DNA of 64,000 bases from a virus. Its lineage: Duplodnaviria > Caudoviricetes. The notes under the pieces were generated by a model, which was not told the origin of the DNA, made no database searches, and was given only the letters and a program-made list of their open reading frames with translations. Of the stretch, positions 32,355-34,074 are shown piece after piece. The stretch covers positions 128,001-192,000 of the IMG/VR virus record IMGVR_UViG_2974692648_000001; one strand, given 5' to 3'. Made by a program: the position numbers and the translations under genes. Position 1 is the stretch's first letter. Each line of letters opens with the position of its first letter.

Positions 32355-34074
32355 TAAGGAATTAGTGTCAAGTCCTTACCTAACTTATTTTATAACAAAC
32401 GTTAAAATAAGGAGCTGGTAATGGAAGTGAATTTTAAATTTAATGCGCGTGAATATACTTTAAAAGATGATTTGAATTTATATCGTGAAAATAAAGAAGT
32501 GGTTTTATTTGAAGACCTTTCCGAAGGAACCTTTTTCATTGAATCAGGTGTGAAGGTGTTTTTAGGTAAAGCAATCATGGAATATTGGAATAGGTGTTAT
32601 TTACCTAGAGAGTACTGGGATAAGATGAAAGTTGTCTTTAAAGACAAAGATAAACTGAACTTTACCCCCACTAACCTTTTTCCGTACTATAAAGAAAAAA
32701 TAGAACACCCAAGTATAAAGGGTTTTTACTTTATCCCTGGGGAAGAGTTAAATGTCATTAACTCTAAAGGTGAAGTTTACCAGCTTAAGAAAGATCGGTA
32801 CCGTTTACCCTATCTTGGTAAGGAAGGTGAAGATAATTCTAATTTTTACCCTTTTACGAGATGTGATGTTGTTAATAAAGATAATAGGTTATTGACACAC
32901 CGTTTAATAGGGTTGACATTCTGCGACCCACCTGAAGATTACCCAAACATGCACGTCGATCACAAAAATGGTGACAAACAAGATTTCTCCCAACTTAACC
33001 TGCAATGGTTGACCCCATATGAGAATATGATGAAAGGTGCGTATAAGGATGGAAATAATAAACAGGTTATTTCTGTTGATGTTTATGATAAGTTAACAAA
33101 AAACTCATCTTCTTATCCGAGTCTTTCTAACTTTGCAAACGTGTTAGGAGTAAATCCCACTTGTGTAATAAACGCTTTCAATACCCCTAATAAGACTTAT
33201 AAAGGGAGGTACGTTATCAAGGCGACTTCCGATAACACAACCTTTGAAGAATTGTTAGATTTAAAGAAAGTTAAGTACACTAACTTTGAAAGCATGAATT
33301 TAAAAACCGGTGAAGTTTTTAAATGGCGAAACGTCGACGAGTTTATAAAAAATAACGGTGGGGGGAGAGGAACGATACGAAAGGTTTTGGAGAACAAGAC
33401 TTCCGGAATTGTGCAGTGGCATATCTTTAGAAAACCGGGTGACTCATGGAACACACCTACCGACTACGACAAAGAAATTTATCGTAGGGGGTTGCAACCC
33501 ACGACAAAGGTCTATGAAATACAGGACCTTGCAAAAAATAAAACCCACATCTGTTATGGTAAAAAAGAATTAATCCAAATCATCCCTGATATAAATTCTA
33601 GAACTATTACCTTCGTAGTTCGAGAAAAGAGAAAGTATAAACAACGTTATTTAATTAAAACCTTGAACTAATTCAAGTCCCATTAGGCACGAAAGTCCTA
33701 GACCGTTTTCTCTTGAATTGCTGGGATGTCCACAAAAGCTTACAACCAAAGGGTGGCCTGAAAGGGCTCACACAACGACCTGAGGGTGTCGAAAGACAGA
33801 AACAATAGTAAGCCTGCTCTATGCTAACCAATAACGCTAAGGAGTGTATACAAGGGACGATCAGCAGCTACGCTTCCTAAGGGGATAACCTATGGAGCAA
33901 GTTCAACGACTAGGGCCTTGCCAGCCTGTACCTACTAGCAGAGTTTAGTGGGGAAGTGTGAGAATACCTAAGTCCTTATGGATATGGTAAAGATATAGTC
34001 TGTTCCCAGTTTAAGAGACAGGGCGGGTGTCTGAGCACACCGGCTACCTAAGCGATTAGGTGGTGGACAATAAG
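32355..34074 (+). ncRNA. group I intron (IA-like, with P7.1/P7.2) carrying an HNH ORF in the P1 region
   Basis: P AATTGCTGGGA 33716, Q GATCAGCAGC 33859, R GTTCAACGACTAG 33901, S AAGATATAGTC 33990; P9 hairpins; probable omega-G at 34074. Confidence 0.9.
32421..33671 (+). CDS. intron-encoded HNH homing endonuclease
   Basis: HRLIGLTF...HVDHKNGDKQD...NLQWLT..EN; C-terminal NUMOD/IENR-like repeats; AT-richer than flanks; AAGGAG RBS. Confidence 0.9.
   Translation: MEVNFKFNAREYTLKDDLNLYRENKEVVLFEDLSEGTFFIESGVKVFLGKAIMEYWNRCYLPREYWDKMKVVFKDKDKLNFTPTNLFPYYKEKIEHPSIKGFYFIPGEELNVINSKGEVYQLKKDRYRLPYLGKEGEDNSNFYPFTRCDVVNKDNRLLTHRLIGLTFCDPPEDYPNMHVDHKNGDKQDFSQLNLQWLTPYENMMKGAYKDGNNKQVISVDVYDKLTKNSSSYPSLSNFANVLGVNPTCVINAFNTPNKTYKGRYVIKATSDNTTFEELLDLKKVKYTNFESMNLKTGEVFKWRNVDEFIKNNGGGRGTIRKVLENKTSGIVQWHIFRKPGDSWNTPTDYDKEIYRRGLQPTTKVYEIQDLAKNKTHICYGKKELIQIIPDINSRTITFVVREKRKYKQRYLIKTLN

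Follow-up and report, generated by a model that had tools for sequence, protein, structure and literature searches.

A probable hybrid of two sister group I introns in the catalytic motif of an RNA polymerase gene from a relative of jumbo Vibrio phages

Why does an RNA polymerase gene of a complete-looking phage genome carry an intron in its catalytic motif and lack the codons that should follow that intron? The locus lies in the window, that is, the whole stretch of 64,000 nucleotides (nt) analyzed here (positions 128,001 to 192,000 of the virus record IMGVR_UViG_2974692648_000001). The full record has 237,509 nt with terminal repeats, and its kin are the jumbo Vibrio phages 2 TSL-2019, VP4B, pTD1, Aphrodite1, and others. 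The intron interrupts a phiKZ-gp180-like RNA polymerase β′ gene within its DxDGD motif, and inside this intron an 8-mer, TCAAGTCC, stands on both sides of an open reading frame (ORF) for an HNH endonuclease. An earlier note on this DNA had read the two 8-mers as guides for the two ends of a missing micro-exon. As described below, the intron is probably a recombinant of two sister introns, and the two 8-mers would belong to one guide helix.

Two probable parent introns and the missing codons

We compared the gene with its relatives to define the missing codons. The DxDGD motif corresponds to the Mg-binding loop of multisubunit polymerases (NADFDGD motif). The β′ gene is present in one copy in this genome, and the exon-1 protein is 88% identical to a pTD1 protein over residues 1-479. 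The gene is uninterrupted in five relatives (loci L001, L003, L005, L006, and L007); translation of the intron-less L001 and L003 alleles reads LGGD[Y/F]DGDQLNSNG, and L005 to L007 each gave one full-length uninterrupted match. In the window the order is LGGD, intron, and QLNSNG, indicating that 12 nt coding for Y/F-D-G-D are gone. Contigs from all four sequencing runs examined contain an intron-less allele that keeps the Y-D-G-D codons and differs from the window exons at 4 positions in 157 nt and at none in 217 nt. Splicing from 32354 to 34075, as homology predicts, would keep the frame and give a product reading LGGD-QLN, which is four residues short and has lost two of the three Asp residues; the intact host reading frame is not restored by predicted splicing, and a cut after U32355 instead would shift the frame. 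A gene with this intron could presumably not yield an active polymerase. Furthermore, the word GAYGGNGAY occurs nowhere in 32355-34074, and in a genome-wide search for the micro-exon (237.5 kb) the single TWYGAYGGNGAY followed by CAR was the exon of the other polymerase gene; the other matches lay in ordinary coding contexts. The absence of the 12 nt, proposed in the earlier note, thus stands, whereas the 8-mers are not the two guides of that micro-exon, as weighed below.

The intron was then analyzed with covariance models. RF00028 matched 33660-34023 over the full model (1-253) with 38.7 bits and an E-value of 8e-8, so that the group I catalytic core is recognized despite a score below the curated gathering score of 50. 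At the gathering threshold no Rfam family matched anywhere in the window, and the intron is visible at the E-value level only. It was the sole RF00028 match in 32200-34300, indicating one core and not the two of tandem introns. The last intron base, G34074, stands directly before CAACTT as in VP4B, in keeping with the terminal G of group I introns.

Comparison with two phages divided this intron at its P2 hairpin. Vibrio phage 2 TSL-2019 (NC_048747.1, gp067-gp065, with gp066) has an intron in the same gene, and the 5′ 1346 nt of the window's intron are identical to it, including the 5′ end, both 8-mers, the HNH gene, and most of P2. This exact run opens at the first intron base, and the adjoining exon 1 is only 129/150 identical to TSL-2019. 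It is the longest exact run among 49,188 nt aligned with that phage (88.1% identical overall), the runner-up being 665 nt. From 33701 onward, however, informative sites are VP4B-like in 120 cases versus TSL-like in 9, and 361 of 407 aligned columns of the core and 3′ tail equal the ORF-less intron of VP4B (NC_042136.1, gp015-gp016), and the window also agrees with VP4B in the 3′ splice site and in the 9 nt that open exon 2. In TSL-2019, by contrast with the window, the core is a different one (63% identical to that of the window), the 5′ splice site carries a U, and exon 2 starts with Y-D-G-D; the TSL-2019 record annotates the intron region only as separate coding sequences. VP4B, unlike the window, keeps three Asp codons in exon 1 and has its own 89-nt 5′ part with the guide UAGUCC. 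The parent insertion sites could be read directly. They are GAT/intron/TATGATGGTGAC in TSL-2019, after the first Asp codon with the Y-D-G-D codons opening exon 2, and GATTATGACGGTGAT/intron/CAACTT in VP4B, 12 nt further on after the third Asp codon.

These comparisons suggest that the intron is probably a recombinant of a TSL-2019-type 5′ part and a VP4B-type core, with the crossover within the 17 nt that both parents share at P2. If real, it would in all likelihood be a dead or helper-dependent allele. The four Y/F-D-G-D codons would be absent because the fused parent introns sit 12 nt apart and the intervening DNA was lost. Similarly, no group I intron 5′ part with a VP4B-type guide was found in the window, because the 5′ part of the downstream intron would have been lost in the fusion. 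Two routes are conceivable: tandem introns around a 12-nt exon could have lost the piece between their two P2 copies, or one intron could have homed into an allele already holding the other, with repair resolved within the homologous cores.

The state of the joined parts was also examined. The folding energy of P2 is -4.7 kcal/mol in the hybrid, compared with -9.0 in TSL-2019 and -12.6 in VP4B, and the basal pairs of the hybrid's P2 are mismatched or lost. Exon position -1 is a C in the window (C32354 opposite G33677) and a U in the other 10 of 10 family members described below; thus the U.G wobble at the 5′ splice site, usual for group I introns and present in those 10, is replaced here. The RF00028 score is below those of both parents (51.2 bits for VP4B and 51.7 for TSL-2019). 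The weak P2 base, the C at -1, and the lowered score give the impression of a recent join that selection has not shaped. The first 9 nt of exon 2 (34075-34083, CAACTTAAC) match VP4B and L108, unlike the intron-less alleles of the closest relatives, and look like a short co-conversion tract that arrived with the downstream intron.

Table 1. Features at the intron locus, in window coordinates.
Feature	Position	Strand	Basis and remarks
Exon 1 of the virion-type RNA polymerase β′-N gene (phiKZ gp180-like)	30924..32354	+	ORF 30924-32357; ends ...LGGD, last codon GAC
Putative hybrid group I intron, 1720 nt, single ribozyme core, last base G34074	32355..34074	+	RF00028; splice sites by homology with L004 and L002
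Segment 100% identical to the Vibrio phage 2 TSL-2019 intron (upstream, first-Asp site)	32355..33700	+	Exact 1346-nt run
Predicted P1 extension, 5′ strand; closes L1 and includes UCAAG of the first 8-mer	32359..32372	+	duplexfold
First TCAAGTCC (32368-32375) and following TTACCTAA; possible local alternative guide for the exon-1 end	32368..32383	+	Duplex energy
Predicted 9-bp hairpin; 3′ strand over the first three bases of the AAGGAG ribosome-binding site of the HNH gene	32384..32411	+	Minimum free energy fold of 32336-32420
HNH homing-endonuclease gene, 416 amino acids, in loop L1	32421..33671	+	PF13392 HNH_3
Predicted P1 extension, 3′ strand	33662..33674	+	duplexfold; overlaps the last HNH codons, the stop, and the first two bases of the second 8-mer
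Second TCAAGTCC; AGUC 33676-33679 pairs with GAC/U, CC 33680-33681 with GG 32349-32350 (predicted)	33673..33681	+	duplexfold and family comparison
P2 hairpin, predicted crossover interval; 17 nt identical in both parents	33684..33700	+	Parent alignment
VP4B-type ribozyme core and 3′ tail (downstream, third-Asp site)	33701..34074	+	Alignment
Exon 2 (QLNSNGIE...)	34075..34239	+	Homology

Predicted guide pairing and the loop that carries the HNH gene

Next, we compared 11 related introns of this polymerase motif, which occupy three insertion positions, for the guide that pairs with the exon-1 end. Those after the first Asp codon are the window's 5′ half, TSL-2019, phiKZ, intron 1 of L126, intron 1 of L017, and the intron of the other polymerase gene of the same genome; those after the second are L012 and intron 2 of L017; and those after the third are VP4B, L108, and L109. 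RF00028 gave ten matches in eight family loci, with scores from 29.5 to 92.2 bits. All 11 introns follow an exon ending in GAY and have a complementary GUC immediately before P2; intron base +1 is also paired in 10 of them (U-A, A-U, or U.G). The best duplex between the 5′ end and the bases before P2 contains this P1 and an extension helix, whose sequence differs between lineages and which supports the guide independently of the GUC count. For 8 of the 10 introns tested, the observed duplex energy was reached in 0-4 of 300 shuffles; these eight represent seven lineages, since the window and TSL-2019 share their sequence. The individual counts were 0 for the window, 2 each for TSL-2019, phiKZ, and L126, 0 each for L017, L012, and L108, and 4 for the second polymerase intron of the same genome.

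In the window, duplexfold paired 32368-32372 with 33662-33666, 32359-32366 with 33667-33674, 32352-32355 with 33676-33679, and 32349-32350 with 33680-33681, with a total of -20.6 kcal/mol that none of 300 shuffles reached. The resulting 13-bp stem would close a 1.3-kb loop, L1, carrying the HNH gene; because P1 and the extension helix bracket the ORF, the HNH gene would lie inside L1 in the HNH-bearing members. In this model, the second 8-mer would be both the end of the stem and the working internal guide, and the first 8-mer would be the distal part of the opposite stem strand (UCAAG pairing with CUUGA 33662-33666).

The repeat itself was then evaluated. The 8-mer occurs at 32368-32375 and 33673-33680, exactly where the earlier note had placed it on either side of the HNH ORF, and these are its only two copies on the + strand of the window. 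The - strand has one, at 19875, and base composition predicts about 0.84 per strand. The match is exactly 8 nt long, without similarity in the preceding 6 nt or the following 9 nt, and as a direct repeat it is marginal, given that a shared word of at least 8 nt arose in 125 of 1000 shuffles (48 nt before P2 versus the 66-nt 5′ flank). The first element, which contains UCCUUACC, is indeed complementary to the exon-1 end as had been claimed, in a duplex of -12.5 kcal/mol with 11 pairs around one mismatch; its significance is marginal, as 64 of 1000 shuffles of the 5′ flank reached this energy. The further observation that the UGUCA upstream of it fits a 3′ exon starting with Tyr/Phe-Asp-Gly codons is borne out by TSL-2019, whose 3′ exon starts TATGATGG, with the splice-site U in a U.G pair. 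A comparable local guide was absent from three of the HNH-bearing relatives, L012, L109, and phiKZ (690, 214, and 601 of 1000 shuffles, respectively), and marginal in L108 (81 of 1000). The guide of the second element, in turn, is present in 11 of 11 introns. The likeness of the first 8-mer to the guide, and its pairing with the exon, may be a by-product or a secondary local guide.

The HNH protein matched PF13392 HNH_3 at residues 160-204 (E-value 8.3e-12) and the PDB entry 1u3e, "HNH homing endonuclease", at residues 113-203 (E-value 6.6e-5). It thus combines an HNH motif with similarity to a solved intron-encoded HNH enzyme, as expected of an I-HmuI-like protein. Its identity to the ORF product of the L012 intron is 34%, and a search for related loci by this protein gave only one record, carrying the same protein at 100% identity. 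The HNH-bearing segment is 100% identical between two phages with 88% identical flanking DNA, which is an indirect sign only of the predicted homing cleavage.

Competition between translation and splicing has been described for T4 introns. It may occur at this intron as well, because the predicted stem overlaps the end of the HNH gene, the stop codon of the exon-1 ORF sits on the 5′ splice site, and a predicted hairpin reaches the ribosome-binding site.

Natural recombinant or collapsed record

The junction could be a product of the record rather than of recombination. According to this alternative, the true phage has a tandem TSL-type intron, a 12-nt micro-exon, and a VP4B-type intron, and during assembly or consensus building one core and the micro-exon dropped out together with the 5′ portion of the second intron. 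We consider this unlikely, although it is the alternative that deserves most attention. Tandem sister introns around micro-exons do exist in the same motif: 6-nt micro-exons remain between the first and second Asp codons at L017:3187-3192 (F-D) and L126:548-553 (H-D), as well as in L087 and L022, with two RF00028 matches each where tested (L017 and L126). A dead essential gene in a complete genome would be unexpected, and the junction occurs in no independent record, with none in metagenome contigs and none in genome contigs. However, identity between the parents at the junction extends over just 17 bases, which is less than the usual assembly word sizes. Moreover, the natural tandem pairs, which are 58% alike and share words of 12-18 nt at most (18 nt in L017 and 12 nt in L126), were assembled without collapse. 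The left junction, where a window-type exon meets a TSL-type intron, must be real DNA, because no shared word there could mislead an assembler; the 17-nt word at the right junction is short for an assembly error, yet such an error is not impossible. The small share of probability beyond a real hybrid and a collapsed record goes to something that restores the motif.

The two 8-mers allow further readings, all of them less probable. That they serve as guides for either end of a micro-exon provided in trans or from elsewhere has very little in its favor. The first element fits exon 1 together with an exon start of the Y/F-D-G type, and the second can pair with a GAY-ending exon. However, both recur unchanged in TSL-2019, whose single intron at a single site leaves no micro-exon; the window's intron has just one ribozyme core; GAYGGNGAY is absent from it, and the genome offers no candidate beyond the exon of the other polymerase gene; and four other HNH-bearing relatives have the guide only after the ORF. 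The second element, which the earlier note had assigned to an exon ending in D-G-D, serves instead the same 5′ exon end and is the guide carried by all 11 introns. It is also improbable that the pair is a duplication scar left when the HNH cassette entered beside the guide. The exact 8-nt repeat without flanking similarity and the close bracketing of the ORF would suit such a scar, but chance alone matched the repeat in the shuffles given above, the HNH-bearing L012, L108, L109, and phiKZ have repeats of only 5-6 nt, which is within chance, and a passive scar does not explain why the first copy pairs with 33662-33666 in the 13-bp stem. Target duplications are not a known product of HNH genes. 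As a side reading of the first 8-mer, it could be a working early guide that holds the 5′ splice site during transcription of L1 and is then displaced by the far strand of the stem. Finally, it is conceivable, if hardly to be expected, that the hybrid circulates: an intron armed with its endonuclease would have entered an allele in which a sister intron already stood at a distance of 12 nt, with deletion of the catalytic loop, and the defective genome would persist by co-infection with the almost identical intron-less phages of the four runs, whose alleles it could still invade as a natural, self-limiting, drive-like allele.

Several points weigh against a real hybrid with the guide model given above. 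No reads of the source sample were found, the best runs sharing only 12% of the words, all from intron-less alleles, and the junction 33684-33700 is therefore not confirmed as physical DNA. The four runs examined contained intron-less alleles and weak matches to another intron only, so they cannot test the junction, and no RNA run with this locus was found. It is also odd that a complete-looking 237.5-kb genome should carry a dead essential gene. Regarding the guide, the count of 11 of 11 for GUC is partly by construction, because the anchor was chosen from the same sequences; the P1 core is short, with three exon pairs; and the long-range duplex is no better than shuffles for VP4B (22 of 300) and L109 (189 of 300). 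The first element pairs better with the exon end than the second does (-12.5 versus -10.5 kcal/mol), and with the start of the TSL-2019 3′ exon it forms five pairs compared with three (counted by eye). The first element offers no covariation, as its sequence is the same in the window and in TSL-2019.

The wider occurrence of the junction words was also analyzed. Exact scans for the TSL-type guide together with the P2 word gave no hit in metagenome contigs and none in genome contigs, and no TSL-type intron was found beyond TSL-2019. The 17-nt P2 word alone occurs in three records among viral contigs, one of which is L012, and at 30 loci in metagenome contigs, of which only L115 and L126 belong to this intron family. 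At about 20 of these 30 loci (within L112-L140), the word is part of a different recurrent element with the flanks ...GCA and TGTAGAA..., often near transfer RNA genes; no Rfam family matched this element at the gathering level in the two loci tried. L115 looks like a member inserted after the second Asp codon (exon 1 ends DSDHD and exon 2 starts GD) and stands outside the 11 introns compared.

Related introns and the risk of crowding

The same genome holds a further intron of the family. Outside the window, at G000:C1:7590-7981, the second polymerase β′ gene (NADFDGDQM-type) is interrupted behind its first Asp codon by a group I intron without an ORF. Its arrangement is intact: GAU/AG pairs with CUGUC including a U.G pair, exon 2 starts FDGDQM, and the duplex energy was reached in 4 of 300 shuffles.

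The phiKZ gp180/gp179 (HNH) intron shares the gene and the site with the window's (LGAD/FDGD), has its HNH gene in L1 and AAGUCC directly 5′ of P2, and scores 92.2 bits with RF00028. It differs in that its HNH protein is 28.7% identical over 59% of the length, no copy of the first element is present, and exon 2 is intact. The gp179 intron was predicted in 2002, according to a study in which long-read transcriptomes showed no splicing (PMC10914365). The short exon 2 of phiKZ gp180 (FDGDTVSFN..., L110:3826-c.3990) is unannotated between gp179 and gp178, as are the corresponding exons in L108 and L109. Around the window's gene, the β′ ORF is flanked by a 2356-amino-acid lysozyme-bearing virion protein and, downstream, by a 1453-amino-acid polymerase subunit, so that the gene order is that of phiKZ gp181/gp180/gp179 (HNH)/gp178.

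A related case is PhiPA3 gp210, a group I intron with a nicking HNH endonuclease at catalytic-site codons of a jumbo-phage virion RNA polymerase, which takes part in competition between co-infecting phages (Birkholz et al. 2024, PMC11620839, as far as its accessible text goes). The PhiPA3 intron lies in the β-like subunit gene (phiKZ gp178 homologue), in contrast to the window's in the β′ DxDGD motif, and that text describes no hybrid or codon loss. In the literature, supplements aside and including the accessible parts of PMC12908238, PMC12880540, and PMC3073962, we found no account of hybrid phage introns or of introns interrupting the DxDGD codons of such genes. The tandem introns of L017 and L126 resemble the window in the close packing of sister introns around the Asp codons, only a few bases apart; however, they keep both introns and the micro-exon, whereas in the window the two introns are apparently fused and the intervening piece is gone.

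Some further features of the window were observed. The runner-up exact run with TSL-2019 (44682-45346, 665 nt) spans the ORF 44852-45325, where the surrounding identity is 88%, and may mark a further recent exchange. In the VP4B-type 3′ tail, 34044-34063 form a hairpin of 8 bp whose loop is GCGA. Thirteen letters of the exon-1 end of phage phiKT1019 recur in the 3′ strand of this hairpin and the bases immediately preceding that strand, and the 5′ strand is similar to the part of the first element that binds the exon; judged by sequence only, the hairpin may imitate an exon or be the remnant of an older P1. In addition, AAGTCCTTA at 33960-33968 equals 32370-32378 of the first element and sits in a core hairpin (P8 in the Rfam alignment) that differs at that spot from both VP4B and TSL-2019.

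Introns that carry homing endonucleases are commonly regarded as harmless because exact splicing removes them, and this locus shows how crowding of sister introns can upset that arrangement. Members of the family insert behind each of the three catalytic Asp codons, all within 12 nt, and recombination between two such sister introns removes the codons between them. If the record is right, the locus would be a natural case of intron-intron recombination destroying an essential active site, and it would give a concrete reason to regard tandem introns around micro-exons as hazardous. Should the record be wrong, a collapse lies hidden at the polymerase gene of a complete phage genome in a public database. 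Either way, the comparison provides a testable P1 model, with the guide beside P2 and the endonuclease gene in an L1 closed by a long stem, which would also cover the still unconfirmed phiKZ gp179 intron.

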